NCBI GenBank assembly: GCA_963725545.1
Contig: CAVRZG010000008.1
Coordinates: 59,392-123,391, forward strand
Reading direction: 5' to 3'
Length of the DNA: 64,000 bases
From: an uncultured Nitrospiraceae bacterium
GTDB lineage: Bacteria > Nitrospirota > Thermodesulfovibrionia > Thermodesulfovibrionales > SM23-35
The notes under the pieces are model-generated. The model was not told where the DNA came from, ran no database searches, and saw only the letters and a program-made list of their open reading frames with translations. Made by a program: the position numbers and the translations under genes. Positions within the stretch are counted from its first letter, which is position 1, and each line of letters starts with the position of its first letter. This document shows positions 3,418-37,354 of this stretch, piece after piece.

Positions 3418-3816
3418 GAAAACGACGGGAAAGCCTCAGTGCTGTCCTGAATATCTGCCGCCGCCCTCCCTTTAACCGCACTCGATCTCTATCACGATGT
3501 AAATCCAATCGGAAGTACTATTTTTGTAGGACAAACACCGACAAAAAAAAGGACGCTTTTCTGATTGCATCGACCAAACATTTAAGATAAAATATGATTA
3601 TACATATTGTTAATATTTAACTATTTATATAGCACTTAATATCAGAAGCTTAAGGTGGCAAGACTGTCGAATGTATCAAATCTCAAAAGGGCACTCTGTC
3701 CAATCCTTGAAAAAATAAGATAAATTTTGGGTATAGAGTTTGCTTTGTCGGAGAGACAAATAATTTCGCCACAAAAATCTTTAGAAGATAAACCGCTAAC
3801 AGGAGGAGGGAAAGTC

Positions 3817-6800
3817 ATGAGGGTAAATAAAGACGGCTCAGGAGGCCGCATAGCAAAAACTGATAAATGGTACCTTGCTGCCTTTATCACATTGATGGTC
3901 TTGCTTTTTCATGCGGACGCTAATGCATTTATATTCACTGTAAATGTGAAGGATGATAACAATGCTGCGGTGAACGGCTTCCGGTGGCTTCTGGAAGAAG
4001 ATAATACATATCCTATTGTTCCGGGGGCCCACGTGTCGGACAGCCCGGCAGTGAGCATCCATAAAAGTCATGCCCCTGTTGCGGCAAATGGCGCTTCGGC
4101 AACTTCCTCGGCGACAATTACCGTGCCTGACGGGCGCTATTTTCTGTCTGTGCTTGCTTCTACAATGAATTACACATTGAGCGGCGCGAGCATAGATACC
4201 ATCAAACTTGCAGCCAATCCGGTTGTTGATGTTGTCCTTCACAACCATCCGGTGCCTACAGCCCAACTATCGGTGCTTGTATTTCATGATAACCAACCCA
4301 TTAACAATGCCCCGGACCAGCCTTTCGAGGCAGGTCTCGAGGGCTTTACGGTCATTGTCAACGACCAGTTGGGACAGATGTCACAGGATGCATTTGGAAA
4401 TCCGCTGGGAACAACCTATCAGTTCGATGCGTTGGGAAATCCAATGACTGATCTTGCGGGCAACTATTTGATAGATATGATGGGGACAGGTGAGATTAAG
4501 ACCGATGCAAACGGCACCGCCTCAGTCAAATATCTTGCGCCTGGGAAGTATACCATTCTGATCACGCCGCCTATTGGAACGGACTGGATACAGACGAACA
4601 CGATAGAAGGCACTCCTAAGATTGATGCATGGGTCAAGGCCAACGAGCCCCCCCTCCTTATAGAGTTCGGACCCGGCCTGCCGCATGTGTTTTTCGGTTT
4701 TGTCCATCCGATGGATTTGCTGGGCACAATGCCGCTTCAACCGGGAGAGTCCAGGGGCACTGTAACGGGTAGGATTGTCAAAACACATCAGGCCCGCCCC
4801 CCGGATATACTTTTATACAACGGGGTTCCTGTTCCGGAATGTTATATCGGCCTGAATACAGCGGCTGGTACAGGCGTTTATGTTAAGGCATGCAATGATG
4901 ACAGCACTTTCCAGATTAATAATGTGCCTCCCGGAACTTATCAGATCGTTATATGGGACAAACCTTTGGACACAATCTTCGGGTTTTATACGGTCATTGT
5001 ACCGCCTGCAGGTGGAACAATTAATACCGGCGACATTCCCGTCAACCAGTGGTTCGGGACCCTTAAAGGGACTGTATTCAGTGATAATACTAATACGGAT
5101 GGATATATGGACCCCGGCGAGTCGGGTATACCCAACCAGATAGTGAACCTTCGTTTCCGGGATGGATCAATGTATCAGACGACAACCACCAGACCTGACG
5201 GAGGCTATATGTTTGAAGAAGTCTTTCCGTTTTTCAAATGGCTGATGGTAGAAGTAGATTACACTCGATACAAACCCACCGGTTCAACATTGATAGTAGA
5301 CGACGGCGGTCCCCTCGCTCCAGGCGCAGAGTTGAACCCCCAGCTTCAGCCTGAGAACAGCAATCTGGGTTGGCGCACGGAGACTTCTCCTTTCCCTGTC
5401 TTGCTGGAAGCCATGACCCTCTATGCCGATCAGACCAATATTATCAACTGGGGAAAGGTGAATTACGGTCAGAATGAAAATGGCGGCATTGCAGGAATTA
5501 TTTATTATGCAACCACCAGAACTGAGGCGGACCCGAGAGCTGCGGTACCCGACCCATGGGAACCCGGAATACCAAGGGTTCAGGTCAACCTCTATCAGGA
5601 CGCGGACATGAACGGTGTCATCGATGATTTAAATGGCGACAGCAGCGTAACTCTCGCGGACGTTGATAATTATCCGTTGAGCTGGTCTACAGGCGGAGCC
5701 AAAGGTCCCGAAGACGTGGATTATAACAGTGACGGAATCTTCGACCCGGGCGATGCCCTGAATATTGCATGGTCGGACAGCTGGGATGACAACATGCCTA
5801 CAGGATGTGTCGGCCCTGCGCAGAGCGCCTACGGCCAGCCCCTTCAGGACTGTGCTGAAACAATGGTAACATGGAACCAATTGCGACCCGGCGTTTTCGA
5901 CGGCGGATATATCTTCACATCATATTTTCCGGGAGGAATGGCATCCGGAGCAGCAGAGGCGGAGGGACTGCCTGCAGGGACGTACATTGTACAGGTCAAC
6001 CTGCCAAATGGTTATGAACTTGTAAAGGAAGAGGACCAGAATATATTCACCGGAGATCAGTATTCCCCAAGCTTATTGCTTCTTCCATCTGTGTGTGTCG
6101 GCGATCCGCATCCAGTTCCGCCTTATCAGACCTTATTCCCGGACCAACTACTTCCGGCTCCCTTTGCAAACCAGACAAGACCGTTGTGCGATAAGAAGCA
6201 GGTCAAGCTCTCGGACGGCCAGAATGCTGCCGCTGATTTTCATCTCTTCACGGAAGTGCCGAAGGCAGCTCGTGTTGTCGGCCTTATCACCAATGACCTT
6301 GCCGTTACACAGAATCCGAATAATCCCGTGTTCACTGAAAAAGCGACCGTCCCCTGGATACCCATTTCATTCAGGGATTACACCGGCAAAGAATTAGTTC
6401 GGACATATAGTGATGAATGGGGAGCTTACAATGCCCTTCTTCCATCCACGTATACGATCAACCCTCCCATTCCCACAGGTGTTTCACCTCATATGATTTC
6501 CATCTGCCTGAATAACCCGGGGCCTATTCCGGACCCTGCGCATCCAGACCAGTTTATTACCGACCCGAATTTCGACCCGCGGTTCAGTTCGACCTGTTAC
6601 ACCCTGGATTTCTGGCCCGGCAAGACAACATATGCCGATACACCGGTAATTGCCGTTGCGGCATTCGCTGCTCCGCAGAGCGCCACGCTGGACTGCCAGT
6701 TCCCTGATGCAACCCCTGTGATTTATTCTGTAAGCGGCGGGGCGGACGTGGGACCATATGTATCGGGCTCAGGCCAATCAATTACGATAACATCTGCCGG

Positions 6801-9414
6801 CACTAATGTGGAGGTGCCGAATCCTGACTATGATCCGTTTGTCGTTCCGGGTAATCCGAAGACTGTCTTCCGTGATTACAGTTTTGGAGCTGCCCAAGGT
6901 TCAGGCAGTGTGACGGTCGGCGGAATTCCGCTTACGATAAATTCCTGGTCGCCGACGACTATCGATGCCGCAGTTCCTCCGGGCACACAGACAGGTGAGC
7001 TGTTGGTGACAAGAGGCAACGGAAAATCTACGGTGATGGGAGTGACCCTTAATGTGGGGAATAACGGCAACCCTGTTGTCAATCTCCTCTCTACCGATTC
7101 GATACAGACCGCTATAACCAATGCTGCCCCAGGGACACTCATCATGGTTCCTCCGGGGACATATAATGAAAATATCATCCTGTACAAGAACGTTAAACTG
7201 CAGGGATGGGGAGCTGCCTCAACGTTTATCAATGCAAGCCCGATCCCTATAGAGCGAGTACCTGCATGGAGAAGCCTCCTGAATAGTTTTATCGCAGGCA
7301 ATCAGGTAGACCTCGCGCCAGGGCAGACCCCGGCCTTTACTGAAGAAATAGCCCCCGGCATTATGGTTATAACAAAGCAGAACACCTTCAGCAGCGGATT
7401 GAGGCCTCGGATTGATGGTTTCACCATCATGGGGGCATCAACCTCAGAAGGAATTTTCGTCAATGCCTATGCCCATTATCTCGAGATCAGCAACAATAGA
7501 ATCATAAGCAACCAGGGTCCATATGCCGGCGCTATCCGGATTGGTACCCCGGGCCTGACCGATCCGGGCTGCATAGACAGCCACTCTAACGCGGTATACT
7601 GCAGTTCCCAGAATGATCACTTGAACATCCACCATAACCACATCGCAGGGAACGGCACCAGTGGATTTGTAGCTAACGGCGGCGGCGCCGGAGGTATCTC
7701 CCTTTACAACGGTTCTGATTTTTACACGGTAAGAGACAACTTCGTATGCGGCAACTTCACCACTGCGAAGGGAGCAGGCATTGTCCATTCCGGCATGAGC
7801 AATCAGGGAGAAATCTCATTTAACAAGGTGCTCTTCAATGAAGCGTCCTTTGGTACGGGGAGTGGCGGGGACGGCGGTGGAATAATGATAGCAGGGGAGC
7901 CGGCCCTTGCCGGAGCGCCTGGAAATCTGACCGTCGGGACAGGAACGGTTTTAATCAATGCGAACCTCATTCAGGGTAATCTTTCAGGCGCAGGGCTGGG
8001 AGGCGGAATCTTCACATCCCAGGTAAATGGCCGGGATGTCTTTTATTCTCCCTTTAATTCTGCGAACTGGAACACTGTCAACATTTTCAATAATATGATC
8101 GTCAATAATATGGCGGGTTACGCCGGCGGCGGAATTGCAATGTTTGACACCGCAAAGGTGAGAATCATCAACAATACCATTGCCGACAATGACAGCTCTG
8201 CAACAGGCATTGCTGCGTTTACAAACGGCCTTCAGCAGTCAATGCCCCAGGGCGCCGGCATTGTATCCACCCTTCACAGTGCCGAGTTGAAAAATGTAAT
8301 CGGATCAGGCGGGGGGCCCGAATTCAACACGAACTTCTCAAACCCTCTCCTCTACAACAATATTTTATGGCAGAACAGGTCATTCTACTGGGATGCCAAT
8401 CAGGCTGCAAACGCTACGGGAGGTCTTGTTGCTAACCCCTCCCTGCCGTATTGGGATCTGCAGGTTTTGGGATCAACAACATTCAAGATGTCCCCCCAGT
8501 ACTGCATACTAACCAGTGCTACAGGATACTCAAGCACCAATAGAGGAGGAACAGCAAATAATCCGAGATTTGATACTCCTTATTTCAATCAGCTCTCAGC
8601 TGCGGCATCACCCGGTGAAGGCGGGAACTTCATACAGGCGCTTTTCAAACCGCTAACACTCACAGGGAATTATCATATCCAATCGAATTCACCTGCTATT
8701 AACAGAGGCAGTAATATTTATTTGTCTCTTGTTCCTGCTGATTATGACAGACAGTCGCGTCCGAATGGCGTGCTTGTCGACATCGGAGCGGACGAATTTT
8801 CCACTTTTGTAGCTAATCCGACCATAACGGTTGTTGCGCCTAATGGCGGAGAAAACTGGCCTATTGGGGCGACGAGGACTATCAACTGGACATACACCGG
8901 CAATCCCGGCAACGTAAAAATCGAGCTCTTTAAGGGTGGCTTGCTCAACAGAACAATTTCAGCAAACGCATTCATAGGAAGCGGAGGAAACGGCTCCTAC
9001 AGCTGGACGATACCGGTTAATCAGACTACCGGCGCCGACTTTCAGGTCAAGGTGACAAGCGCGTCGAATGCGACCGTAACCGATACGAGCAATGCCAACT
9101 TTACGATCTCGCCTCCGACCATAACGGTTGTTGCGCCTAATGGCGGAGAGAACTGGACAAGAGGGACGATAAGGACAATTACCTGGACATACACTGGAAA
9201 TCCCGGCACTTTTCTCAAAATCGAGCTTTTGAAAGGCGGCGTATTAAACAGTACCATCACCACTTTCGCATCTGCTGGAATCAACGGCAATGGGTCCTTT
9301 ACCTGGTTCATACCCTTCAATCAGGCCACAGGTAATAATTACCGGATCAGGGTAACAAGCACAGCTAATGGGACCGTAACGGATATGAGCAACGCTGACT
9401 TTGCAATACAGTAA
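3817..9414 (+). CDS. Giant secreted surface protein (~1865 aa): SdrD-B/CarboxypepD_reg-like Ig domains, IPT/TIG-like domain, long right-handed parallel beta-helix (PbH1) region, two C-terminal GGENW modules
   Basis: SD AGGAGGAGGG at 3801-3810 and ATG at 3817. Signal peptide MRVNK..MVLLFHADANA. Domain-type strings: VFSDNTNTDGYMDPGESGIPNQIVNL (SdrD-B type), GSVTVGGIPLTINSWSPTTIDAAVP (IPT type), and beta-helix turns (ISNNRIISNQG, IHHNHIAGNG, FNNMIVNNMAGYAGGGI, IINNTIADND). Cap ..LVDIGADEF, then two ~98-aa modules. Confidence 0.8.
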   Translation: MRVNKDGSGGRIAKTDKWYLAAFITLMVLLFHADANAFIFTVNVKDDNNAAVNGFRWLLEEDNTYPIVPGAHVSDSPAVSIHKSHAPVAANGASATSSATITVPDGRYFLSVLASTMNYTLSGASIDTIKLAANPVVDVVLHNHPVPTAQLSVLVFHDNQPINNAPDQPFEAGLEGFTVIVNDQLGQMSQDAFGNPLGTTYQFDALGNPMTDLAGNYLIDMMGTGEIKTDANGTASVKYLAPGKYTILITPPIGTDWIQTNTIEGTPKIDAWVKANEPPLLIEFGPGLPHVFFGFVHPMDLLGTMPLQPGESRGTVTGRIVKTHQARPPDILLYNGVPVPECYIGLNTAAGTGVYVKACNDDSTFQINNVPPGTYQIVIWDKPLDTIFGFYTVIVPPAGGTINTGDIPVNQWFGTLKGTVFSDNTNTDGYMDPGESGIPNQIVNLRFRDGSMYQTTTTRPDGGYMFEEVFPFFKWLMVEVDYTRYKPTGSTLIVDDGGPLAPGAELNPQLQPENSNLGWRTETSPFPVLLEAMTLYADQTNIINWGKVNYGQNENGGIAGIIYYATTRTEADPRAAVPDPWEPGIPRVQVNLYQDADMNGVIDDLNGDSSVTLADVDNYPLSWSTGGAKGPEDVDYNSDGIFDPGDALNIAWSDSWDDNMPTGCVGPAQSAYGQPLQDCAETMVTWNQLRPGVFDGGYIFTSYFPGGMASGAAEAEGLPAGTYIVQVNLPNGYELVKEEDQNIFTGDQYSPSLLLLPSVCVGDPHPVPPYQTLFPDQLLPAPFANQTRPLCDKKQVKLSDGQNAAADFHLFTEVPKAARVVGLITNDLAVTQNPNNPVFTEKATVPWIPISFRDYTGKELVRTYSDEWGAYNALLPSTYTINPPIPTGVSPHMISICLNNPGPIPDPAHPDQFITDPNFDPRFSSTCYTLDFWPGKTTYADTPVIAVAAFAAPQSATLDCQFPDATPVIYSVSGGADVGPYVSGSGQSITITSAGTNVEVPNPDYDPFVVPGNPKTVFRDYSFGAAQGSGSVTVGGIPLTINSWSPTTIDAAVPPGTQTGELLVTRGNGKSTVMGVTLNVGNNGNPVVNLLSTDSIQTAITNAAPGTLIMVPPGTYNENIILYKNVKLQGWGAASTFINASPIPIERVPAWRSLLNSFIAGNQVDLAPGQTPAFTEEIAPGIMVITKQNTFSSGLRPRIDGFTIMGASTSEGIFVNAYAHYLEISNNRIISNQGPYAGAIRIGTPGLTDPGCIDSHSNAVYCSSQNDHLNIHHNHIAGNGTSGFVANGGGAGGISLYNGSDFYTVRDNFVCGNFTTAKGAGIVHSGMSNQGEISFNKVLFNEASFGTGSGGDGGGIMIAGEPALAGAPGNLTVGTGTVLINANLIQGNLSGAGLGGGIFTSQVNGRDVFYSPFNSANWNTVNIFNNMIVNNMAGYAGGGIAMFDTAKVRIINNTIADNDSSATGIAAFTNGLQQSMPQGAGIVSTLHSAELKNVIGSGGGPEFNTNFSNPLLYNNILWQNRSFYWDANQAANATGGLVANPSLPYWDLQVLGSTTFKMSPQYCILTSATGYSSTNRGGTANNPRFDTPYFNQLSAAASPGEGGNFIQALFKPLTLTGNYHIQSNSPAINRGSNIYLSLVPADYDRQSRPNGVLVDIGADEFSTFVANPTITVVAPNGGENWPIGATRTINWTYTGNPGNVKIELFKGGLLNRTISANAFIGSGGNGSYSWTIPVNQTTGADFQVKVTSASNATVTDTSNANFTISPPTITVVAPNGGENWTRGTIRTITWTYTGNPGTFLKIELLKGGVLNSTITTFASAGINGNGSFTWFIPFNQATGNNYRIRVTSTANGTVTDMSNADFAIQ
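8821..9411 (+). repeat. Two tandem ~294-bp coding modules (GGENW / Kre9-KNH-like Ig module) at the 3' end of the giant gene
   Basis: ITVVAPNGGENW..G..RTI.WTYTGNPG..KIEL.KGG.LN.TI......G..GNGS..W.IP.NQ.TG.....I.VTS..N.TVTD.SNA.F.I occurs twice. The PF10342-like assignment is from memory only. Confidence 0.8.
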
Positions 9415-9471
9415 ATGGACATGAAGTCTTTGAAGCATATAAATGTCGGAATTGATAGAAAGGAGTCAACC

Positions 9472-10641
9472 ATGAAAGGCATAACCAAGTATCTCATATT
9501 ATTGATCACGGCCCTCTCGGTCTGTGTTATTAATGCGGAAGCGGACATAGCGACACAGTGTCCGGCAACCATCATTAATACAGCCACCGGAGAGACGAAC
9601 AATCCCAATATTATTTGTAAACATCTGACTGCCGGAGACGGCTTTGTCAAGATGGCTGACGGAACTGACTCTTATATATTCGGGTTCTCCGATGTAACAG
9701 GGGTCCCGGATAACCAGGTCATGGATATGGGGATGCTGATGGCTAATTTTTCGGCGCCTACACTTACGGTGAGAGAAGGCCAGGAATTCTATCTCACTCT
9801 TACTAACGCGGGCATGATGATGCGTCCTGATCTCTTTGATCCGCACACAGTCCATTTTCACGGCTTCCCAAATGCGTCATCAGTTTTTGACGGAGAGCCG
9901 ATGGCGTCTATCGCCATAAACATGGGCAACAGCATAACCTACTATTACAATGTGGTAGAGCCCGGCACCCATATGTACCACTGTCATGTTGAGGCGTCAG
10001 AGCACATGCAGATGGGCATGCTCGGAAACCTTTATGTGCTCCCTGCACAGGATGGCACCTCCTACGGTGGATATACAACCTTCGCGTACAACGATGGGGA
10101 CGGCTCAACCGGTTATGACGTTGCCTATCCGATTCAAATGGTGTCGTTTGATCCGAATTTTCACGCGGCGGACCTGAATATTCAGCCTCCTCCTTTTGCC
10201 TTGATGAAAGACACTTATACCATGCTGAACGGAAGGGGATATCCCGACACAATAAATCCTTCGGTTATTCTTAACATGAACGGAGATCCTTCTCAGCAGA
10301 TAAACTCCCTCATTACCGCTGCCCAAGGAGACAAGGTGCTGCTGAGGATTTCGAGTCTCTCAACCACTGATTTCTATACTTTGGCCATTCTCGGAATTCC
10401 TATGAAAGTTGTGGGTACAGGCGCCCGCATCCTGCGGGGGAAAGGTTTGCCTTCTGGAACAGACCTGTATTACAACACCAATTCAGTCACGCTCGGTGGC
10501 GGTGAGTCGACAGATGTAATCCTTGATACAACTGACGTCGATCCCGGCACGTATTTCCTGTACACCACCAACCTGAATGACCTTAGCAATAATAATGAAG
10601 ATTTCGGTGGAATGATGACCGAAATTGTCGTCACGCCTTAG
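9472..10641 (+). CDS. Two-cupredoxin multicopper-oxidase subunit A: N-terminal domain has a complete T1 site plus 4 trinuclear-cluster His; C-terminal domain has no ligands
   Basis: SD AAGGAG then ATG at 9472. Sec signal MKGITKYLILLITALSVCVINAEA. HTVHFHG (HxxHxH, ~9844-9864). YHCHVEASEHMQMGM (HCH at 9979-9987, followed by H and M). The second domain (LNGRGYP..VLLRISS..) has no HxH motifs. Confidence 0.85.
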   Translation: MKGITKYLILLITALSVCVINAEADIATQCPATIINTATGETNNPNIICKHLTAGDGFVKMADGTDSYIFGFSDVTGVPDNQVMDMGMLMANFSAPTLTVREGQEFYLTLTNAGMMMRPDLFDPHTVHFHGFPNASSVFDGEPMASIAINMGNSITYYYNVVEPGTHMYHCHVEASEHMQMGMLGNLYVLPAQDGTSYGGYTTFAYNDGDGSTGYDVAYPIQMVSFDPNFHAADLNIQPPPFALMKDTYTMLNGRGYPDTINPSVILNMNGDPSQQINSLITAAQGDKVLLRISSLSTTDFYTLAILGIPMKVVGTGARILRGKGLPSGTDLYYNTNSVTLGGGESTDVILDTTDVDPGTYFLYTTNLNDLSNNNEDFGGMMTEIVVTP

Positions 10642-10661
10642 GTGAGATGAGGAGGAATGCC

Positions 10662-11999
10662 ATGAATAAATTCAATAGAACGACACTTATTTTGTTTTTC
10701 TTGACCTTTACGATCTTCACGTGGACTAAGAATCTATATGCCTTTATTGAGGGTGTGAGCGGATCGTCATTTAATCTGACCGCTAAGACAGGGCACATCA
10801 GCACGCCTGACGGCAACAGCGTCTTTATGTGGGGGTTTGCGTTGGATACCCCAAGCGCTTTTTGTCCAGGGGGCGGTTGCATGCAGTATCCCGGGCCCAC
10901 CTTTATTGTGAATCAGAATGATACGGTAACGATCACTCTGACCAACGGCCTTGCAGAACCTGTATCAATAGTATTTCCGGGGCAGGCTGTCACTGCGACC
11001 GGAGGGGTCCCGGGTCTTCTGACAAATGAAGCCCTCCCAGGGGGGACGGTCCAATACTCATTTACCGCAAACAACCCCGGCACATTCACCTATTACAGCG
11101 GCACAAATTCCGCGCTGCAGGTTGAAATGGGCCTTGCCGGGACACTCATAGTGAGGCCGGCAGGTTACAATGAAGCGGACATGGATACGTATAAGGCATA
11201 TTCTCATAATGATTCAAAATTTGATCGTGAATATCTCTTTTTCCTCAGCGAGATAGACCCTAATATTCATCAACTCGTGGAATTCGGCAAAATGGATATG
11301 GTTGATACAACCACGTTTTTCCCGAACTATTTCTTTGAAAACGGACGCAACCTCCCGGATACGATGGCTGATGCCTATGTCGACTGGCTCCCGAGCCAGC
11401 CTTATAACTGTATGCCTATTATGCATCCCAACGAGAAGGTGCTTATCAGATTCGTCGGCGGCAACAGGGCGTCACATCCGCTTCATACCCATGGGAACAA
11501 CCATCTTGTAATTGCCAGAGATGGGAAGCTTCTCGAAAGCACTCCCGGCGCAGGCGCAGACCTGTCCGAATCGAATTTTACAACAACAGTTTATCCGGGA
11601 GGAACAGCAGACGCTATCTGGACATGGACGGGAGAAAAACTCGGATGGGACATCTACGGCCACACTGATCCGACAAACACCGGGAAGATAGGCGCAGCAT
11701 GTACCGCAGCCGGTGTGCCCCTCCAGCCTGGCGAATATGAACCCGACCACTGCAAACCCATACCTGTTAATCTGCCTGACATACTTAGCCTCACAGTGGG
11801 GCCGCATTACAGCGGAAGTCCGTTCCTGGGCCAGATGGGCGCTCTTCCTCCTGGAACCGGCGGTTATAATATGTTCGGCGGGATTTTCTTCATGTGGCAC
11901 TCCCATAATGAGAAAGAACTCACCAACTACAATATTTTCCCCGGCGGCATGGCTACGATGGCTGTTGTTGAACCGCCCGGCGCGCCTATAATGCCTTAA
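10662..11999 (+). CDS. Two-cupredoxin multicopper-oxidase subunit B: N-terminal domain has no ligands; C-terminal domain keeps 4 trinuclear-cluster His but has no T1 Cys
   Basis: SD GAGGAGGA then ATG at 10662 (alternative ATG at 10647). Signal MNKFNRTTLILFFLTFTIFTWTKNLYA. Domain 1 has VSIVFPGQ and TYYSGTNSALQVEMGLAG in place of the HxHG and WYHSH motifs. Domain 2 has HPLHTHG (11475-11492) and MWHSH (HSH at 11898-11906), with Ser where the T1 Cys would be. Confidence 0.8.
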   Translation: MNKFNRTTLILFFLTFTIFTWTKNLYAFIEGVSGSSFNLTAKTGHISTPDGNSVFMWGFALDTPSAFCPGGGCMQYPGPTFIVNQNDTVTITLTNGLAEPVSIVFPGQAVTATGGVPGLLTNEALPGGTVQYSFTANNPGTFTYYSGTNSALQVEMGLAGTLIVRPAGYNEADMDTYKAYSHNDSKFDREYLFFLSEIDPNIHQLVEFGKMDMVDTTTFFPNYFFENGRNLPDTMADAYVDWLPSQPYNCMPIMHPNEKVLIRFVGGNRASHPLHTHGNNHLVIARDGKLLESTPGAGADLSESNFTTTVYPGGTADAIWTWTGEKLGWDIYGHTDPTNTGKIGAACTAAGVPLQPGEYEPDHCKPIPVNLPDILSLTVGPHYSGSPFLGQMGALPPGTGGYNMFGGIFFMWHSHNEKELTNYNIFPGGMATMAVVEPPGAPIMP

Positions 12000-12013
12000 T
12001 GAGGAGGAAAAAA

Positions 12014-15000
12014 ATGAAAGAGAAAAATATAATACTGAAAAGAACTCTGACACTTGCATTTGCTCTTGTCAGCTTCCTGACCCTTATGACAGGCATTTCC
12101 TTTGGTGCGGATGTAGATGTCTATCTGAGGGCGGATGTGCTGACGATTCCTGTTAATACGTTCAACAACCCGGAACCTATTGTAATGTGGGGATATGCCC
12201 AATGTCCCACTAATGCATTTACCGGGTGCTCTGCGGCAACCGTGCCCGGCCCTACTATAAGGGCCAAAGCAGGAGATGTGCTCACAATTCATCTGAAGAA
12301 TAATTTGGCAGGGGCATATACTGAGCCGACTTCGATCATAATTCCGGGACAGATTACAACCATGCACCCTGTATGGATTGACAATGTCGGCTCCATCGTC
12401 TCTACGGATTCCAGAAACGCTTCTGACATCACTTCGAGGGTAAGATCATTTACCAGTGAAGCTTCTACTGGAGGACAGGAGAACTATACTTGGAATGGTG
12501 TCGTGGGCGCTCCTGGTCTGAAGGCTGGGACCTATCTTTACCAGAGCGGGACACACCCGTCGCTTCAGGTCCAGATGGGACTTTATGGCGCACTGATAGT
12601 TGACACTAACCCAGCTGTAGCACCCAAAGTTGCTTATGCGGGAGTGACTTATGACAGTGAAGCAATCGTGCTCTATAGCGAGATAGACCCTGAACTCCAT
12701 TATTCAGTGGCCTCCGGCAATTACGGCATTCAGCAGCCCGCGCCGCCTGCGCCTCCCATCAGGGGACGCATAACAAGTACTATTGATTACAACCCTCGGT
12801 TCTTCCTGGTAAATGGGACACCTTACACTCCCGGCAGCTCTCCTGTTTTCACGGGAAGTCAAGGAGACACGACAATCATAAGGTACCTGAACGCAGGACT
12901 TCAGACTCATGTGCCAATTGTTCAAGGCTCTTATATGTCTATTATGGCGGAAGACGGCAATCTGCTGCCCTACCCAAGAGAACAATACTCAATGATGCTG
13001 GCTGCCGGAAAGACCTTGGATGCGATCATTACGCTCCCTTCCACACCGGGCTACATCCCCATCTACGACAGGACGCTCGACCTGACAAATGGAGCTGCCG
13101 CCCCCGGAGGATTGCTTGCATATATAAATGTTCCGGGACCTGCTCAGTACACTTTGACTGTCAATAAAACCGGAAGCACCGGCAACGGCACAATATTAGC
13201 GGCAAGCATGCCGGGTGGTATATCATGCGGAACTGATTGTCAGGAGACATACAACTCCGGAACTGTATTGAGACTTTCAGCCATACCTGATGCGGGTTCT
13301 TCTTTTGCAGGATGGTCGGGGGACCCCTCGTGCACAGGCATAGGGACATGCATCGTTACAATGAATGCCGTCAAAACAATCACAGGCGTATTTACACCCA
13401 TAGTCTATCATACGGTCACTCCATCAGTAGGGTCGGGCAACGGCACGATTAGCCCGTCCACCCCTCAGTCGGTGGTTTCCGGCAATACCGCATCCTTCAC
13501 GCTGAATCCGGGCGCTCACTATCATATTTCATCGGTCGGCGGCGACTGCGGCGGCACTCTTGTTGGGAACCAATACACTACAGCGTCAGTCACAGGGGCT
13601 TGCAACGTTATAGCCAATTTTGCGATTGACCAGGTCACCGTTACTCCTTTGATCGCAGGAAGCGGCAGCACGAATCCGTCGACACCTCAAACGATAGATT
13701 ATAATACCTCCACTTCCTTTACAGTAAACGCAAATGCAGGGTTTCATATTCAGTCAGTCACGGGATGCGGCGGGACATTACTTGTCGATACATTCACAAC
13801 GGGGCTGGTCACTGCAAACTGCACTGTAACGGCAACCTTTGCGCCGGACACATACACTGTTAATCCATCGGCCGGACCAGGCGGCGCTATTAATCCGTCA
13901 ACCCAGCAGACAGTGCCGGCCAATCAGACAACAGCTTTTCTCATAAGCCCGAATGCAGGGTTTCAAATCAACACAGTCACCGGATGCGGCGGGACATTTA
14001 ATGCAAATACAAATACGTATACAACAGGACCTATTACCTCCAACTGCAACGTAGCAGCCACGTTTGTGCAAGGCATAAACGTCGGTGTCCCCAATGGCGG
14101 CGAGAATTGGCTACCAGGCACAGTGCAGACAATCAGATGGACATACTCCGGGGCAACGGGCAGCTTCGTGAAGATCGATCTTTACAAGGGTGGTGTGTTT
14201 AATAGAACCGTTATCGCATCCACATTCACAGGCACCGGAGGAAACGGCTCTTATATCTGGCCTGTGCCGTCCAATCTTGTGCCTGGAACAGACTACCGGA
14301 TAAAGGTAACAAGCACAACAAACAGCACACTAACAGACATAAGCAATAACAACTTCACCATCACTGGTCCGACCATAACGGTTGTTGCGCCTGATGGCGG
14401 AGAAAACTGGCAGGCTGGGACAACGACGGCTATCACCTGGACATACACCGGCAATCCCGGCAACGTGAAAATCGAGCTCTTTAAGGGCGGCTTGCTCAAC
14501 AGAACCATTTCGGCAAGCGCCTCTGTCGGCGCAGGCGGGAACGGCTCTTTCAACTGGGCTATACCGTCCAATCAGACCACAGGTCCTGATTTCCAAATCA
14601 AGGTAACAAGCACATCGAATGGGACTGTAACTGATATGAGCAATGCCAACTTTACAATATCGCCTCCGCCCATCACTCCTTCGACCATAACGCTTGTTGC
14701 GCCTAACGGCGGAGAAAACTGGCAGGCTGGGACGACGACGGCTATCACCTGGACATACACCGGCAATCCCGGCAACGTGAAAATCGAGCTCTTTAAGGGC
14801 GGCTTGCTCAACAGAACCATTTCGGCAAGCGCCTCTGTCGGCGCAGGCGGGAACGGCTCTTTCAACTGGGCTATACCGTCCGATCAGACCACAGGTCCTG
14901 ATTTCCGAATCACTGTAACAAGCATATCGGATGGAACTGTAACGGATACAAGCATTTCTAACTTTACAATATCGCCTCCGCCCATCGCTCCTCCGCCCAT

Positions 15001-15292
15001 AACGGTTGTTGCGCCTAATGGCGGAGAGAACTGGACAAGAGGGACGATAAGGACAATTACCTGGACATACACTGGAAATCCCGGCACTTTTCTCAAAATC
15101 GAGCTTTTGAAAGGCGGCGTATTAAATAGTACCATTACCACTTTCGCATCTGCTGGAATCAACGGCAATGGGTCCTTTACCTGGTTCATACCCTTCAATC
15201 AGGCCACAGGTAATAATTACCAGATCAGGGTAACAAGCACATCGAATGGAACCATTACGGATATGAGCAACGCTAACTTTACAATACAGTAA
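12014..15292 (+). CDS. Ligand-free MCO paralogue (two degenerate cupredoxin domains) fused to four InlB-B-repeat-like Ig domains and four GGENW modules; predicted non-catalytic scaffold/anchor subunit
   Basis: SD GAGGAGG then ATG at 12014 (an ATG at 11999 overlaps the stop of subunit B). Signal MKEKNIILKRTLTLAFALVSFLTLMTGISFGA. Clear homology to subunit B (IVMWGY, PGPTI, TSIIIPGQ, YLYQSGTHPSLQVQMGLYGALIV, LYSEIDPELH), but every Cu-ligand position is substituted. Followed by the G.G.I..S.P..I.CG..C..TY..GT.V.L.A.P..GS.F.GWSGD type repeat and three relatives, then 4 GGENW modules. Confidence 0.75.
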   Translation: MKEKNIILKRTLTLAFALVSFLTLMTGISFGADVDVYLRADVLTIPVNTFNNPEPIVMWGYAQCPTNAFTGCSAATVPGPTIRAKAGDVLTIHLKNNLAGAYTEPTSIIIPGQITTMHPVWIDNVGSIVSTDSRNASDITSRVRSFTSEASTGGQENYTWNGVVGAPGLKAGTYLYQSGTHPSLQVQMGLYGALIVDTNPAVAPKVAYAGVTYDSEAIVLYSEIDPELHYSVASGNYGIQQPAPPAPPIRGRITSTIDYNPRFFLVNGTPYTPGSSPVFTGSQGDTTIIRYLNAGLQTHVPIVQGSYMSIMAEDGNLLPYPREQYSMMLAAGKTLDAIITLPSTPGYIPIYDRTLDLTNGAAAPGGLLAYINVPGPAQYTLTVNKTGSTGNGTILAASMPGGISCGTDCQETYNSGTVLRLSAIPDAGSSFAGWSGDPSCTGIGTCIVTMNAVKTITGVFTPIVYHTVTPSVGSGNGTISPSTPQSVVSGNTASFTLNPGAHYHISSVGGDCGGTLVGNQYTTASVTGACNVIANFAIDQVTVTPLIAGSGSTNPSTPQTIDYNTSTSFTVNANAGFHIQSVTGCGGTLLVDTFTTGLVTANCTVTATFAPDTYTVNPSAGPGGAINPSTQQTVPANQTTAFLISPNAGFQINTVTGCGGTFNANTNTYTTGPITSNCNVAATFVQGINVGVPNGGENWLPGTVQTIRWTYSGATGSFVKIDLYKGGVFNRTVIASTFTGTGGNGSYIWPVPSNLVPGTDYRIKVTSTTNSTLTDISNNNFTITGPTITVVAPDGGENWQAGTTTAITWTYTGNPGNVKIELFKGGLLNRTISASASVGAGGNGSFNWAIPSNQTTGPDFQIKVTSTSNGTVTDMSNANFTISPPPITPSTITLVAPNGGENWQAGTTTAITWTYTGNPGNVKIELFKGGLLNRTISASASVGAGGNGSFNWAIPSDQTTGPDFRITVTSISDGTVTDTSISNFTISPPPIAPPPITVVAPNGGENWTRGTIRTITWTYTGNPGTFLKIELLKGGVLNSTITTFASAGINGNGSFTWFIPFNQATGNNYQIRVTSTSNGTITDMSNANFTIQ
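14072..15289 (+). repeat. Four tandem ~300-bp coding GGENW modules (approx 14072-14371, 14372-14683, 14684-14995, 14996-15289)
   Basis: Direct reading. Modules 2 and 3 share a ~200-nt core that is nearly identical. Module 4 is nearly identical to 9121-9411. Confidence 0.85.
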
Positions 15293-15374: not shown

Positions 15375-15606
15375 ACAAAGAATAATGATGCCAAAGTATC
15401 CGTCGATTTATTAAAATAAAGAAACAACCGGAGATGATATCTGTTCAGCTTGTGCTGACCCTGCTGCTTACAGGAATAAATGAAGAACCCTGCGGCAGAG
15501 ACCGCAGGGTATCTTAATGTAAGGAATTGTTTTTTTAGATTCGCTCGCTAACCCGGCGGCAAGCCGGCGGGAAATGCACTCGATATCCGTTTCAGAAGGA
15601 CTGAGA

Positions 15607-17934
15607 ATGACGATAAAAAAGGTGTCTTCACTTTTTGCTTTTTCGGCTGTGTGTATCTGTATACTGGCTTTTGCGCATAATGCTTACGCAATAAACCATG
15701 CTGCGTCACTCGAAAAATTAATCCGTTCTCTAAGTCCGGAGTACGAATTGCCTGTAATTATCCATATGTCCGACAAAGCAGCCATTGGTTCCATAACAGG
15801 TAATGATAAACGGATACGAACAACAAAGATTGTGCGGGCACTCAAAGACAAGGCAAATGTGACCCAGGCGAAGCTCCTGTCCTTTCTCGAAATGAGAGAA
15901 GCCCAAAAAATAAAAAGCCTATGGATTATTAACAGCATTGCGGCAGCTGTGCCGGTCAGGTTCATTCCCGAACTGGAAAAATTTCCCGGGGTAGAAAGCG
16001 TTGAGCAGGACTATATTGTGCACGCGCCTGTTGTTAAGTATGGAAGCGCGGCCTTGCCGGAGTCGAACCTGGAGGCTATCAGAGCACCGGAGGTCTGGAA
16101 TCTGGGGCACACGGGGGCGGGAGTGGTAGTTGCAACCGTGGATACGGGCGTTGATATTCATCACCCGGACCTGGCAGGCAAATGGAGGGGCGGCGCCAAC
16201 AGCTGGTACGACCCCAACGGCGAGCACTCTTCACCGTATGATGCGGACGGCCACGGCACAATGACCGCAGGGATTATGATCGGTGGTTCGTCGGGAGGGA
16301 CCGCGATCGGGGTTGCTCCGGATGCGAAATGGATCGCAGTCAAGATTTTCAATGACAAAGGGGATTCAACGACAAGTGATATTCACGATGGTTTTCAATG
16401 GCTTCTCGACCCGGATAACAATCCCGTTACCGATGATACCCCTGATGTTGTCAACGCCTCATGGGGATTAGTTGACAGCACTGGGAACTGCGTTCTCAGT
16501 TTCCAGCTGGACATACAAAATTTAAGGGCTGCGGGCATTGCAGTCGTCTTCGCAGCTGGAAACGAGGGGCAACCTGCTCCGCCTTTGACAAATACGAGCG
16601 ACAGCCCTGCAAACAATCCGGGCTCCTTTGCTGTGGGAGCGGTCGACAGTAATAATATAATAGCGTCATTCAGCAGCCGCGGACCTTCTGCCTGTGACGG
16701 CAGTATATTCCCTCATGTAGTTGCCCCCGGAGTGGATATCCGGACCTCAGACCTTACAGCAGGAGGAGTTTTTCCTGATTCTTATACCTATGTATCTGGC
16801 ACGTCTTTTTCTGCGCCTCATGTTGCAGGCGCCATGGCCTTGCTAAAAAGCGCATTTCCCGGAAAGACTATGGAGGAAATTGAACTGTCGCTGGAGCAAT
16901 CTGCAACAGACCTCGGAATCCCGGAGGGCGACAACGCCTATGGATACGGACTGATAAATGTATTGAGCGCATACAATGTCCTTCTGACCGCTAATTCTGC
17001 GAGCCCTAAAATTGAAGTCTCGCCTGCATCCTACGATTTTGGAGAAACCGTAGCAGGCGCAAGTTCTTCGCCGGCTTCCTTTCTATTTTCCAATAAAGGG
17101 ACCTCAGACCTTCAAATGGGAGCGGCATCTTTTGGCGGAACAAATACCGATGATTTTAAGATACTCGCTGATAACTGTTCAGGCAGGACGTTGGGCGAAC
17201 AATCAACCTGCTCCGTCGAGATATATTTCATGCCGTCCTCGACCGGCATAAGAACTGCATTTCTTTCCATGACTTCCAATGATCCTGTTGCACCGATATT
17301 GTCCGTAGCGCTTGCGGGAACCGGCAGTGCCCCTCAGGCGCTGACCGTAATGTCTCCTAATGGCAGTGAGAACTGGACTACAGGGACTAAACTGACCGTA
17401 CAATGGACATACTCAGGGAACCCTGGTCCTTTTGTTAAGATCGAACTCCTCAAGGGAGGAGTATTGAACCGCACGATCAAAGCGCGGATTTCAGCGGGTA
17501 AAGGCGCCTACACATGGACTGTCCCGGCAAAACAAAAACTCGGCAATGATTATCGGATCAGGATCAGGAGCACGTCCAATATTGCTTATACCGATACGAG
17601 CGATTCTGATTTCTCCATAGTCTCGCCGCCGCCGCCCTCGATATCCGTTACAGGTCCCCACGGAGGTGAAGTTTGGCAGAGAGGCTCCTCGCAATCCATC
17701 AACTGGACATTTGCAGGGAAGGCGGGCACATATGTGAAGATTCAATTGTTTAAGGGTGGAGTGCTCAACAGGACAATATCGTCATCCGTCAAGATAGGAA
17801 GCAACGGCTCCGGATCATTTGCCTGGAGAATTCCGCTGAATCTGACTACAGGGGATACCTATCAGGTAAAGATCACAAGCAAATCAAAGGGCACTGTTAA
17901 TGATATTAGCAATGGTACTTTCCAGATACAATAG
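15607..17934 (+). CDS. Secreted subtilisin-like serine protease (peptidase S8) with I9-like propeptide, a beta-sandwich domain and two C-terminal GGENW modules
   Basis: ATG at 15607 after GAAGGA. Signal MTIKKVSSLFAFSAVCICILAFAHNAYA. Catalytic triad contexts VVATVDTGVD, DGHGTMTAG and SGTSFSAPHVAG. Then PKIEVSPASYDFGE..FSNKGTSDL..DF (choice-of-anchor-D/ASH-like), then LTVMSPNGSENW.. and ISVTGPHGGEVW.. modules (17341-17931). Confidence 0.9.
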   Translation: MTIKKVSSLFAFSAVCICILAFAHNAYAINHAASLEKLIRSLSPEYELPVIIHMSDKAAIGSITGNDKRIRTTKIVRALKDKANVTQAKLLSFLEMREAQKIKSLWIINSIAAAVPVRFIPELEKFPGVESVEQDYIVHAPVVKYGSAALPESNLEAIRAPEVWNLGHTGAGVVVATVDTGVDIHHPDLAGKWRGGANSWYDPNGEHSSPYDADGHGTMTAGIMIGGSSGGTAIGVAPDAKWIAVKIFNDKGDSTTSDIHDGFQWLLDPDNNPVTDDTPDVVNASWGLVDSTGNCVLSFQLDIQNLRAAGIAVVFAAGNEGQPAPPLTNTSDSPANNPGSFAVGAVDSNNIIASFSSRGPSACDGSIFPHVVAPGVDIRTSDLTAGGVFPDSYTYVSGTSFSAPHVAGAMALLKSAFPGKTMEEIELSLEQSATDLGIPEGDNAYGYGLINVLSAYNVLLTANSASPKIEVSPASYDFGETVAGASSSPASFLFSNKGTSDLQMGAASFGGTNTDDFKILADNCSGRTLGEQSTCSVEIYFMPSSTGIRTAFLSMTSNDPVAPILSVALAGTGSAPQALTVMSPNGSENWTTGTKLTVQWTYSGNPGPFVKIELLKGGVLNRTIKARISAGKGAYTWTVPAKQKLGNDYRIRIRSTSNIAYTDTSDSDFSIVSPPPPSISVTGPHGGEVWQRGSSQSINWTFAGKAGTYVKIQLFKGGVLNRTISSSVKIGSNGSGSFAWRIPLNLTTGDTYQVKITSKSKGTVNDISNGTFQIQ

Positions 17935-17971
17935 AATGTTAGGGTCCCAATAACTTTTGAGAGGTGCTTTA

Positions 17972-18430
17972 GTGAAGTGGAGTGCGACACTTGTTCTTAT
18001 TGCTGTTATCTTTTTCGCAGGGATTAACTTTTCCGTGGGAAGAACTTATGCAGGGGAACAGGCGCAGGCTAAAGAGCCTGTACCCGATGGAGCAAAGGAC
18101 TTGGAAGAGAAATGGGGCATAAAGATATTGAGTATCCGTCTGACGGCAGGGGGCTATATGCTGGATTTTCGTTACAGAGTTATCGATGCTGATAAAGCCG
18201 CGCCTCTTTTTGACGGGAAAATCAAGCCTTATCTCGTTGACCTGAAAAGCGGGGCGAAGTGCCAGGTCCCCGAATCCTCGAAAATCGGGGCCTTGCGTCA
18301 GACCAGAAAACCCTTTGCTAACCACAACTATTTCATCATGTTTGCAAACCCCGGCAAACTTATCAAAAAGGGGAATGCAGTTACTATTGTTGTCGGCGAT
18401 TTCAGGGCTGAAAATCTGACGGTACAGTGA
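17972..18430 (+). CDS. Small secreted hypothetical protein (last gene of the secreted cluster)
   Basis: GTG at 17972 after GAGAGG. The hydrophobic N-terminus VKWSATLVLIAVIFFAGINFSVGRTYA resembles a signal peptide. I recognise no family. The antisense ORF 17969-18460 is less plausible. Confidence 0.55.
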   Translation: MKWSATLVLIAVIFFAGINFSVGRTYAGEQAQAKEPVPDGAKDLEEKWGIKILSIRLTAGGYMLDFRYRVIDADKAAPLFDGKIKPYLVDLKSGAKCQVPESSKIGALRQTRKPFANHNYFIMFANPGKLIKKGNAVTIVVGDFRAENLTVQ

Positions 18431-18739: not shown

Positions 18740-18761
18740 ATACGCATAATCGATATAGAGT

Positions 18762-18794
18762 CGTTAGTCCTTTGTTGGCTAACGGCTTTTTTTT
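18762..18794 (+). terminator. Rho-independent terminator of rpmE
   Basis: Stem CGTTAG (18762-18767) pairs with CTAACG (18779-18784), followed by a run of 8 T (18787-18794). Confidence 0.6.
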
Positions 18795-19029: not shown

Positions 19030-19872
19030 GTGATGATGAAGGGCAGAAGGGGCTGGACAGTCGCTGTCAGAGGTCCGAATGGAGAAATCCATCTCAAGAA
19101 AGAGCCTCTGTCGGAGCTGCCGTGGATTTTCAGGCTGCCCATCGTAAGAGGCTTCATCGCATTGTTTCATGCCATGTTCATCGGCATCAAGGCGATAGAA
19201 TTTTCTGCCGACAAGGCATACGACGAAGAAGACGGCGATCAGTTAAGCCCCGTGTCTATCGGACTGACAATCGCTCTTTCGATTTTGCTCGGCATAGGGC
19301 TTTTTGTCCTTCTGCCGCTATATGCCACAAAATTGCTCGGAAATTTCTTCCCTCTTGTCTCCAATAGTTCTCTGATGTTCAATTTTGTCGACGGTGTTAT
19401 CAGGGTCTTCCTGTTCATCCTCTATATTGTCGGAATAGGCATGTGGAAAGAAATGAGGAGGATATTCGAATACCACGGAGCAGAGCACAAGGTAATCCAT
19501 GCTTACGAGAACGGCAATGAGCTTCTGTTCCGGAATATCAAGAAGTACAGTCCGCTGCATCCCCGCTGCGGCACAAGCTTTCTCCTCATCGTCATGATCA
19601 TAAGCATATTCACGTTTTCGTTTATCCCCCAGGCCTGGCCGTTCCTTTACAAATTCTTTTCAAGACTCGTCCTTATTCCCTTGATAGCCGGAATCTCTTA
19701 TGAACTCCTGAAGCTCTCCGCAAAGATGGAACACAATTTCATCATGCATCTCCTGATACAACCCGGATTGTTCCTGCAGAGGCTCACAACAAGAGAGCCC
19801 GACGAGTCACAGATAGAGGTGGCGGTTGAAGCTCTCCAGGAAGTCCTTAAACTTGAGGACGCCAATGCTTGA
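19030..19872 (+). CDS. DUF1385 (YqhQ-like) membrane protein; true start probably upstream of 19030
   Basis: The conserved family N-terminus GGQAVIEGVMM is encoded in frame at 19006-19038, upstream of the first canonical start (GTG at 19030). The gene order rpmE-DUF1385-prfA is common. Confidence 0.8.
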   Translation: MMMKGRRGWTVAVRGPNGEIHLKKEPLSELPWIFRLPIVRGFIALFHAMFIGIKAIEFSADKAYDEEDGDQLSPVSIGLTIALSILLGIGLFVLLPLYATKLLGNFFPLVSNSSLMFNFVDGVIRVFLFILYIVGIGMWKEMRRIFEYHGAEHKVIHAYENGNELLFRNIKKYSPLHPRCGTSFLLIVMIISIFTFSFIPQAWPFLYKFFSRLVLIPLIAGISYELLKLSAKMEHNFIMHLLIQPGLFLQRLTTREPDESQIEVAVEALQEVLKLEDANA

Positions 19873-20927
19873 AAAGCTTAGAACCATAGAAGAAAAATAC
19901 GAGCAGCTGACACAGCTTCTGATGGACCCGGCAGTCCTGTCAAAACATACCGAACTCCAAAAATACTCTAAAGAACAGTCTGATCTTCAGCCGCTGGTTG
20001 CAAAGATCAGAGAGTACAGCAAGCTTCTTTGCGACATTGAGGGGGCCGAAGAACTCTTGAAAAGGCGGCGATGAAGAGATGCACGAACTGGCCCAGGCTG
20101 AACTCAATGAGCTGAGGGAGAAGAAACCGGTCATCGAGGAGGAACTGAAGGTTATGCTCCTGCCGAAGGACCCTCGCGATGAAAAGAACGTCATCCTTGA
20201 GATAAGGGCCGGCACAGGGGGCGAGGAGGCTGCCCTCTTTGCATCGAACCTTTTAAGGATGTATATGAAATACGCTGAACTGAAGAAATGGAAGGTTGAG
20301 ACGATCGACCTTAATGCAACCGGTCTCGGCGGGATCAAGGAAGTGATCATATCCATACTCGGGAAAAACGCTTACAGCAGGCTCAAGTATGAAAGCGGAG
20401 TGCATAGAGTTCAGAGGGTTCCTGTGACTGAAGCGTCCGGAAGAATTCATACATCGGCTGCAACAGTAGCAGTGCTCCCGGAGGCGGAGGATGTCGACAT
20501 CAAGGTCGAAGAAAAAGACCTCAGGATAGACACATTTTGTTCTTCAGGTCCCGGAGGACAGAGTGTCAACACAACGTATTCCGCGGTCAGAATTGTGCAC
20601 ATACCGACAGGTCTTGTTGTCCAGTGCCAGGACGAGCGGTCGCAGACTAAGAACAAAGACAAGGCTATGAAGGTCCTCCGTTCGCGCCTGTATGAGATGG
20701 AGATGGAAAGACAGGAGAGAGAACGGGCATCCGATAGAAAATCCCAGGTAGGGACCGGCGACAGGAGTGAGAAGATACGTACCTACAATTTTCCACAGAA
20801 CCGCGTATCGGACCACAGAATAGGTCTCACTCTTCATAAACTCGACCGGGTGCTTGAGGGCGAGATCGATGAAATCATAGAAGGACTTATTTCCCATTAT
20901 CAGGCGGAGAGACTTAAGGAGCTCTAA
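19865..20927 (+). CDS. prfA: Peptide chain release factor 1, interrupted by a +1 frameshift at the A run 20060-20063
   Basis: [15 protein letters not shown].. lies in frame 2 up to the TGA at 20072. [37 protein letters not shown] lies in frame 0 from 20061. The PVT and GGQ motifs identify RF1. Confidence 0.9.
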
Positions 20928-37165: not shown

Positions 37166-37354
37166 ATATAGCCCTCCCCGCTCTTTTAGAAATGACAATA
37201 TTCGATATATAGTGAAACACAAAATAGCTGGGTTGTCAATTACAGAGACGTGTTGCGGGTACATATTGAAAATAATCAGTTGAGTATGATATAAAGGTTA
37301 ACACCTTGACAAAGGAGGCATTGACACAGACTTATATATTGAATTCTTATTTTT

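Follow-up and report, generated by a model that had tools for sequence, protein, structure and literature searches.

The window analysed here is a stretch of 64,000 nucleotides (nt) from an uncultured Nitrospiraceae bacterium (contig CAVRZG010000008.1, positions 59,392 to 123,391 of the forward strand). It encodes three tandem secreted paralogues with the two-domain multicopper oxidase (MCO) fold, A, B and C. The gene in question is the last of these, C, whose product carries a pair of cupredoxin domains without copper ligands followed by a long tail of β-sandwich modules. An earlier note on this DNA had called C a catalytically dead MCO paralogue converted into a long display stalk. Our analysis points to a copper-free subunit of the oxidase as its probable role and makes a dedicated stalk unlikely. 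Genes A to C and the oxidase-like parts of C are as follows.

9415..10641, + strand: gene A, two-domain MCO subunit with the type 1 (T1) copper ligands H144, C190, H197 and M202 and the trinuclear cluster (TNC) ligands H147, H149, H189 and H191 (Pfam, motif scan, alignments)
10647..11999, + strand: gene B, two-domain MCO subunit with four TNC His, H280, H282, H418 and H420, all in domain 2 (Pfam, motif scan, alignments)
12014..15292, + strand: gene C, copper-free two-cupredoxin protein with an eight-module tail (open reading frame (ORF), Shine-Dalgarno sequence, Pfam)
12014..12106, + strand: Sec-type signal peptide of C (MKEKNIILKRTLTLAFALVSFLTLMTGISFG, then A), cleavage site inferred (sequence reading; helix at amino acids (aa) 9-30 in the AlphaFold2 (AF2) model)
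12110..12712, + strand: cupredoxin domain 1 of C, aa 38-238, with the former T1/TNC motif now Q182-S183-G184...Q190...L195 (Pfam, BLASTP, family alignment, AF2)
12791..13138, + strand: cupredoxin domain 2 of C, aa 265-380, with the former TNC His now I307/Q309 and D357-R358 (Pfam, BLASTP, MAFFT, AF2)

Gene C occupies an uninterrupted open frame of 1097 aa (11999..15292, + strand), and residue numbers of C follow this frame, counted from ATG 11999. A start at ATG 12014 gives a protein of 1092 aa, and this codon is the likelier start because a perfect Shine-Dalgarno sequence, AGGAGG (12002-12007), lies 6 nt upstream of it, while ATG 11999 merely overlaps the stop codon of B as TAATG. No twin-arginine consensus is present in the signal peptide of C. 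A separate assembly of a near-identical strain (L085; ENA ERZ27266623) carries A, B, the gene upstream of A (G, described below) and the first 552 codons of C at 99.3-99.6% nt identity to the window, with C in the same frame and 3 aa differences over the 552 codons. Such a check is needed, since the assembly of the window is not free of apparent frameshifts: at least one occurs, in the essential gene prfA. The prfA gene (release factor 1; 19865-20927, + strand) is split, with its N-terminal 69 aa in one frame and the remainder in the ORF 20079..20927. The split is probably an assembly error; a programmed frameshift of the prfB type was considered as its cause and rejected, as no CTTTGAC site lies nearby.

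Both cupredoxin domains of C were recognised by Pfam above the cut-offs (Cu-oxidase_3 at aa 81-120 and Cu-oxidase at aa 265-351). By BLASTP, aa 1-400 of C matched B with 25% identity over 377 columns (E=2e-21) and A at a lower significance (E=6e-5). For aa 1-385, an AF2 model that drew on 49 homologues was confident (predicted local distance difference test (pLDDT) 88.5; predicted template-modelling score (pTM) 0.85) and showed two cupredoxin domains. Foldseek matched this model to 3g5w, 2zwn, 5zl1, 4kns and 7rab with target-normalised TM-scores of 0.68-0.75. By class, the matches comprise two-domain MCOs (3g5w and 2zwn), trimeric copper nitrite reductases (NirK) and the dodecameric MCO 7rab, and factor V (4bxs_V) was found at a lower rank. 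Compared to B, C has a specific conserved insertion at aa 119-151 (window 12353-12451), in which P124 is invariant and R147-V-R-S-F151 nearly invariant. Neither Pfam nor NCBIfam holds a model specific to the C family, and proteins of the C type are labelled 'FtsP/CotA-like multicopper oxidase' or 'hypothetical' in databases.

The ligand positions of C were read from pairwise BLAST alignments and per-family alignments, and the first motif of domain 2 was taken from a MAFFT alignment. A joint MAFFT alignment of A, B, C and the family misaligned two ligand motifs, and pairwise BLAST was preferred. The equivalent positions are:

A H144/H147/H149: C T111/I114/P116
A H189-C190-H191: C Q182-S183-G184
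A H197: C Q190
A M202: C L195
B H280/H282: C I307/Q309
B H418-S419-H420: C D357-R358-T359

At the T1 site, T111, S183, Q190 and L195 of C replace H144, C190, H197 and M202 of A, and the eight His of the TNC are represented by I114/P116, Q182/G184, I307/Q309 and D357/T359. There is no HxH motif within aa 1-400 of C. Since C has the two MCO-type cupredoxin domains of the fold but the ligands of neither the T1 site nor the TNC, it is, judging from these positions, not an oxidase by itself.

A and B divide one set of ligands between them. All ligands of A, the T1 set and four TNC His, sit in domain 1, and its domain 2 is ligand-free. Domain 1 of B is ligand-free, and in its domain 2 H418 and H420 form a WHSH motif, which we take to be an ordinary laccase L2-type motif with no lost Cys. 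Domain 1 of A and domain 2 of B sum to exactly the 8 His and the T1 set of one MCO active site. A residues H144, H147, H149, H189, C190, H191, H197 and M202 are invariant in 65/65 orthologues, as are H280/H282 of B in 73/73, and H418-S-H420 is kept in 72/73. Known two-domain MCOs are head-to-tail homotrimers, with each TNC formed between the first domain of a chain and the second domain of its neighbour. Since domain 2 of A and domain 1 of B have no ligands, neither protein could form a TNC alone, and by the known trimer geometry A and B together could not close a ring, because they have only four cupredoxin domains. The first domains of B and C carry one substituted signature, S-G...Q...MGL, which suggests that B and C share an ancestor in which the domain-1 sites had already been lost. 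A further residue of B, His277 (in SHPLHTHG, window 11475-11477), is invariant in 73/73 orthologues; it is not among the eight TNC ligands, B has no T1 Cys, and His277 may be a remnant of a T1 site or belong to the second coordination sphere.

The loss of copper ligands is a property of the whole C family. The ligand set was absent from all 81 genomic orthologues and from the 120 best database hits, and several of the substituted positions are themselves highly conserved (S183 in 80/81 orthologues, G184 in 76/81, Q190 in 80/81, L195 in 81/81, D357 in 78/81 and R358 in 76/81). The window protein carries the family motifs GTYLYxSGTxPxxQVQMGLYG, SEIDPxLH and YDRR, lies directly downstream of B, and agrees with the family in 66 of its 69 columns with a conservation of 90% or more, the three misses being conservative. 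The core of C is conserved as well: over the same 65 loci its mean pairwise identity is 0.51, compared with 0.60 in A and 0.58 in B. The ratio of nonsynonymous to synonymous substitution rates (dN/dS), estimated by the NG86 method for 14 close orthologue pairs, was:

A: 0.056-0.315
B: 0.069-0.339
C core: 0.095-0.34
C tail: 0.115-0.57

Between the window and L085, the only close relative in its own lineage, omega for C was ~0.25, a value derived from just 3 aa changes in 552 codons and thus from too little signal. The substitution rates and conserved columns indicate that C is under purifying selection and exclude decay. What the earlier note had said of this part of the protein is borne out: two cupredoxin folds homologous to those of B, replacement of every copper-ligand position, an intact ORF of 1092 codons, and a selected role rather than decay. 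The dN/dS of C resembles that of A and B. Orthologues that retain the ligands, which it had named as a finding that would speak against its view, do not occur among the 81.

Since the ligands of A and B are complementary and the A-B-C order is near-obligate (see below), we favour the view that A, B and C form an obligate heterotrimeric two-domain MCO with one active site, in which C serves as the third, non-catalytic protomer. The three tandem paralogues would divide the labour, with A supplying the T1 site and four TNC His from domain 1, B the other four from domain 2, and C none. Copper would be bound solely at the interface between domain 1 of A and domain 2 of B, and the six-domain ring would be completed by C at two interfaces devoid of copper, B domain 1/C domain 2 and C domain 1/A domain 2. 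The outcome would be a ceruloplasmin-like ring with a single active site built from three polypeptides, presumably in a 1:1:1 stoichiometry. Assembly would take place outside the cytoplasm, because A, B and C each have their own Sec signal peptide.

Genes A, B and C belong to a larger cluster, whose further members in the window are:

3727..9414, + strand: gene G, giant secreted protein of 1895 aa with Ig-like/SdrD_B, β-helix and choice-of-anchor Q domains and two terminal GGENW modules (ORF, Pfam, NCBIfam)
15574..17934, + strand: S8 subtilase with a choice-of-anchor D domain and two terminal GGENW-type modules (Pfam, NCBIfam, module hidden Markov model (HMM))
17957..18430, + strand: sm, small conserved protein of 157 aa with an N-terminal hydrophobic helix (synteny, profile searches)

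G had no sequence match in the PDB, and sm had no Pfam family and merely a marginal similarity to MmpS5 (E 0.07). Across related loci the gene order is G (about 1650-2300 aa), A, B, C, sm and often the S8 subtilase. Among the loci in which each position was testable, the positions relative to C were:

B directly upstream of C: 70/73
A upstream of C: 66/66
G upstream of C: 53/55, and downstream in the remaining two
sm downstream of C: 66/73
S8 downstream of C: 40/60

Gene spacing in the window is tight: the stop codon of G directly adjoins the start of A, 5 nt separate A from B, and the 14 nt between B and C hold the Shine-Dalgarno sequence. The C and S8 genes are 281 nt apart, and this gap holds a GC-rich perfect hairpin (ACCCTGCGG...CCGCAGGGT) at 15487-15510. 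A terminator-like site (18757-18789) lies 3' of the sm gene.

A scan of species-representative genomes found a C relative in at least 568 species-level genomes from many phyla, and an exhaustive profile search gave 1,566 clusters (50% identity) at E<=1e-30. Carriers include Nitrospirota, Desulfobacterota (Geobacteraceae, Syntrophorhabdus and Desulfobulbaceae), Myxococcota, Planctomycetota, Acidobacteriota, Betaproteobacteria (Gallionella, Thiobacillus, Rhodoferax and Sulfuricella), Gammaproteobacteria (Thioploca and Methylocaldum), Lentisphaerae, Kiritimatiellales and Hydrogenedentes. Some carriers are in culture, for example Myxococcus sp. RHSTA-1-4 and Rhodoferax. Just 5' of G, several of the Beta- and Gammaproteobacterial loci have a gene for a response-regulator receiver with a LIVEDNxxFRxxL-type N-terminus (L026 707-1105, L056 155-925, L078 1343-1756 and L035 1646-2119), which may regulate the cluster.

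G and A occur as natural fusions in one reading frame in five loci from five lineages (L032, L038, L043 (2296-8679), L045 and L074; the lineages are Thermodesulfobacteriota, Nitrospirales, Sedimentisphaerales, Pirellulales and Hydrogenedentes). In these fusions the A part begins after the signal peptide, and the linkers are Ig-like or dockerin-like (DxNxDG motifs). Because such fusions, lacking the signal peptide of A, are found in five lineages, they argue for a physical association in which G and the oxidase would form one unit. Three of the five fusion loci have a C without a tail.

The tail of the window C spans aa 384-1097 (714 aa) and consists of eight β-sandwich modules:

13148..13402, + strand: D1, Cys-rich InlB-B-repeat-like module, aa 384-468, with 4 Cys (Pfam Flg_new_2, E=1e-11)
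13403..14077, + strand: D2-D4, aa 469-546, 547-618 and 619-693, with two Cys each (mutual similarity, DNA repeat)
14075..14359, + strand: K1, Kre9_KNH-type 'GGENW' module, aa 693-787, the most divergent copy (Pfam, module HMM)
14372..14968, + strand: K2 and K3, aa 792-886 and 896-990 (DNA repeat, module HMM)
14999..15283, + strand: K4, aa 1001-1095 (DNA repeat, module HMM, AF2)

Flg_new_2 (PF18998, divergent InlB B-repeat) scored 45 bits on C against a gathering cut-off of 23.6, over two stretches of which the best is aa 407-468. D2-D4 share 47-52% pairwise identity (E 1e-15 to 1e-20), and a DNA repeat lies in their region (13725-13792 / 13944-14011). Kre9_KNH (PF10342) scored 105.6 bits against a cut-off of 24.6 over four stretches, and an HMM made from the window's own GGENW modules gave 150-164 bits for each copy in C. 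This composition, one InlB-B-like, three related and four GGENW modules, is the one that the earlier note had described, with 714 aa measured for a tail put there at about 720 aa. K2 and K3 arose by a recent tandem duplication (identity 90% in aa, 93% in nt), and K4 is 94% identical in aa and 96% in nt to the last module of G (9106-9405). At the DNA level, 9106-9405 in G matches 14984-15283 in C (96%), and 8807-9106 matches 14358-14657 and 14670-14969 (81-93%). Such similarity over a distance of 5.5 kb suggests that the end modules of the two genes were recently copied from one to the other, by gene conversion or duplication. In the 64-kb window GGENW modules are confined to the C-termini of three proteins, with two in G, four in C and two in S8. 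AF2 predicted K3-K4 as two rigid all-β domains whose mutual orientation is undefined (pLDDT 95.9, pTM 0.61), and Foldseek matched them only to generic tandem Ig arrays (titin Z1Z2, CbhA Fn3-like modules and RPTP Ig1-2).

Beyond the window, the GGENW-type module was found in 468 proteins (E<=1e-5), including metallo- and cysteine peptidases, plastocyanin-like proteins and archaeal (Methanoperedens) proteins, and in 100 of the 120 best hits no more than 10 aa lie between the end of the last such module and the C-terminus. The length of the tail varies widely among the 73 complete C orthologues (0-851 aa; median 274 aa), nine of which are tail-less. The window C, with its 714-aa tail, is near the top of this range and is longer than all of the best 150 of the 1,566 representatives (maximum 1007 aa). 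The folds in the tail differ by lineage and include InlB-B, Kre9_KNH, choice-of-anchor-D/ASH, cadherin-like, VCBS/FG-GAP and SLH. The C tail is homologous to the tail of G and/or S8 of the same locus in 32 of the 55 loci that could be tested, at identities up to 99%; by partner, sharing was found with the G tail in 15/48 and with the S8 tail in 20/41, and the matches end at the C-terminus of the partner in 33/35. On this comparative evidence, the tail of C is an optional, lineage-variable accessory made of promiscuous Ig-like modules. We infer that it may act as an exchangeable device for co-assembly or co-localisation, common to G, C and the protease and homogenised by gene conversion. It would most likely hold the oxidase ring near G and the protease.

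The earlier view, that the tail is a long stalk which tethers the A-B-C ring and displays it on the cell surface, would fit the eight tandem β-sandwich modules, the ten Cys of D1-D4, which are consistent with extracytoplasmic disulfides, and the rigid K3-K4 domains of undefined orientation with their resemblance to titin Z1Z2-type Ig arrays. It appears unlikely, given that the tail-less orthologues do without it and that the same modules terminate G and a soluble protease. No sorting signal, lipobox or membrane helix was found at the C-terminus of C. The host is a diderm (BamA, TamB and a TonB-dependent receptor are encoded in the window), and type II secretion system genes flank only 4 of about 80 loci. 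The missing anchor signal and the rarity of linked type II secretion genes also weigh against the co-localisation role, as do the 23 of 55 loci in which module sharing was undetected and the lengths of the G and C tails, which are uncorrelated (rho 0.16, p 0.31). The conversion into a display stalk put forward in the earlier note is therefore not upheld. Its proposal of a structural third of the ring plus a tether fares better: the A/B ligand split and A-B-C synteny favour the ring, and a tether is plausible, with G a more likely partner than the cell surface. An IPTL-CTERM sorting motif is present in another protein of the window (35477-37264, - strand), which makes an exosortase-type sorting system probable in the host; such a signal is absent from all proteins of the cluster.

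Several observations weigh against the heterotrimeric ring. C diverges faster than A and B. Compared to the closest GTDB relative (L006), the window is 77% identical in A, 76% in B and only 53% in C, and nucleotide similarity between the two stops at the B/C border (window ~12019, L006 2823). The identity of the window C to its orthologues is uncorrelated with that of A (r=0.05), and the ex-ligand positions 307 and 309 in domain 2 are variable among orthologues. These data suggest that C is the fastest-evolving subunit or one that is occasionally exchanged, with either replacement or accelerated divergence relative to L006.

Such partly independent evolution would also fit a C that stood outside the oxidase ring, as a copper-free homotrimer of its own or as an adaptor binding G or a substrate, with A and B assembling in some other way. 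The C-specific conserved insertion (P124 and RVRSF at 147-151) would be in line with this, as would the tail, which C has in common with G and S8 rather than with A or B. We regard this arrangement as improbable. The four domains of A and B would be unable to close a pseudo-threefold ring by the known fold geometry, the former interface motifs are among the most conserved positions of C, and the A-B-C order is strict and the coupling tight. More doubtful still is that C has gained a new binding or catalytic site, for instance a substrate or metal dock for the T1 site of A formed by H186, E154, D357 and R358, possibly while remaining in the ring. These residues are well conserved (H186 in 72/81 orthologues, E154 in 75/81, D357 in 78/81 and R358 in 76/81), and the RVRSF loop is nearly invariant, but they form no recognisable metal-binding constellation, and conserved polar residues at former cluster positions are explained equally well by interface packing. 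H234 (81/81) lies in a DPxxH motif common to A and B and is thus probably structural. A decaying pseudogene or an ORF produced by misassembly, for which the loss of all ligands and the apparent prfA frameshift might be cited, has a negligible chance of being correct, given a frame intact over 1092 codons with the first 552 confirmed in an independent assembly, dN/dS of 0.10-0.34, the 66/69 family columns kept and the 1,566 cluster representatives.

A non-catalytic third protomer can be compared with several known systems. The closest family are the homotrimeric two-domain MCOs of type C (NeMCO of Nitrosomonas europaea, 3g5w; metagenomic mgLAC, 2zwn; SLAC), which are the best sequence and fold matches of A and C and have, like these, a two-cupredoxin protomer. 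Their trimeric state is stated in PMC13151041. As in A, their T1 site is in domain 1. They have three identical sites, whereas the A/B/C locus has complementary halves for one possible site and a C without any, and C differs from them further by its 714-aa tail. To our knowledge, all structurally known two-domain MCOs are homotrimers, and we found no description of a heteromeric or split-site two-domain MCO in the searchable full-text literature. The Nmar_1354 'heterotrimer' was considered as a precedent and rejected, as it is a proteolytic alpha-alpha-alpha' form of a single gene product.

In ceruloplasmin, hephaestin and MnxG, six cupredoxin domains share a single TNC, located at one interface, as would be the case in the proposed A-B-C ring. 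They are single polypeptides, whereas A, B and C are encoded by separate genes and individually secreted, and no A-B-C fusion was found among the best 150 of the 1,566 C representatives. A published scheme derives the six-domain MCOs from a triplicated two-domain ancestor (PMC3600357), and the A-B-C locus looks like an unfused, subfunctionalised stage of this scheme. Factors V and VIII are MCO-derived rings that have lost copper sites, use the ring as a scaffold and carry C-terminal β-sandwich domains (C1/C2), and factor V has no conserved copper ligands (PMC3600357). Their likeness to C is an analogy only, as they are eukaryotic, single-chain proteins with discoidin-type appended domains and no catalytic partner subunit.

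FtsP/SufI of E. coli lacks copper centres. It offers a precedent for non-catalytic use of the MCO fold (PMC2661564). Unlike C, it is a monomeric, three-domain Tat substrate and a member of the divisome, and its model (NCBIfam PRK10883) did not match C; only B scored, with 15.4 bits against a cut-off of 581. In Sideroxydans lithotrophicus ES-1, the Slit_1812-1818 region includes a co-encoded trio of 'cupredoxin-domain' proteins (Slit_1816-1818), two of which have canonical MCO motifs and the third of which is larger, motif-less and has adhesin-like and polysaccharide-lyase-like domains; all are predicted to be extracellular and were up-regulated on magnetite (bioRxiv 10.1101/2024.09.20.614158). 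By description alone, this trio resembles G-A-B. Unlike the G-A-B-C cluster, the Slit_1812-1818 region, which is reported from other taxa, also encodes SCO1/SenC and a cytochrome. Ten loci, most of them from Beta- and Gammaproteobacteria, were examined for the genes upstream of G, which include response regulators and not SCO1.

Collectively, we consider it an evenly balanced proposition that the cluster encodes an undescribed and very widespread obligate heterotrimeric two-domain MCO, an unfused intermediate between homotrimers and six-domain proteins that is coupled to G, covalently in some phyla, and serviced by a dedicated subtilase. Hundreds of species from groundwater and sediment, among them strict anaerobes as well as oxidisers of iron and sulfur, have the conserved six-gene extracytoplasmic system. 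In terms of annotation, proteins now labelled 'multicopper oxidase' or 'FtsP/CotA-like' include thousands of copper-free C subunits. The step from two-domain trimers to one-site six-domain proteins such as ceruloplasmin, hephaestin, MnxG and factors V/VIII has so far been a hypothetical scheme. If the heterotrimeric arrangement is correct, three natural genes that have lost their ligands in a complementary way would open that step to observation and experiment, and C would be a clear case of a pseudoenzyme subunit kept to complete an oligomeric active enzyme.

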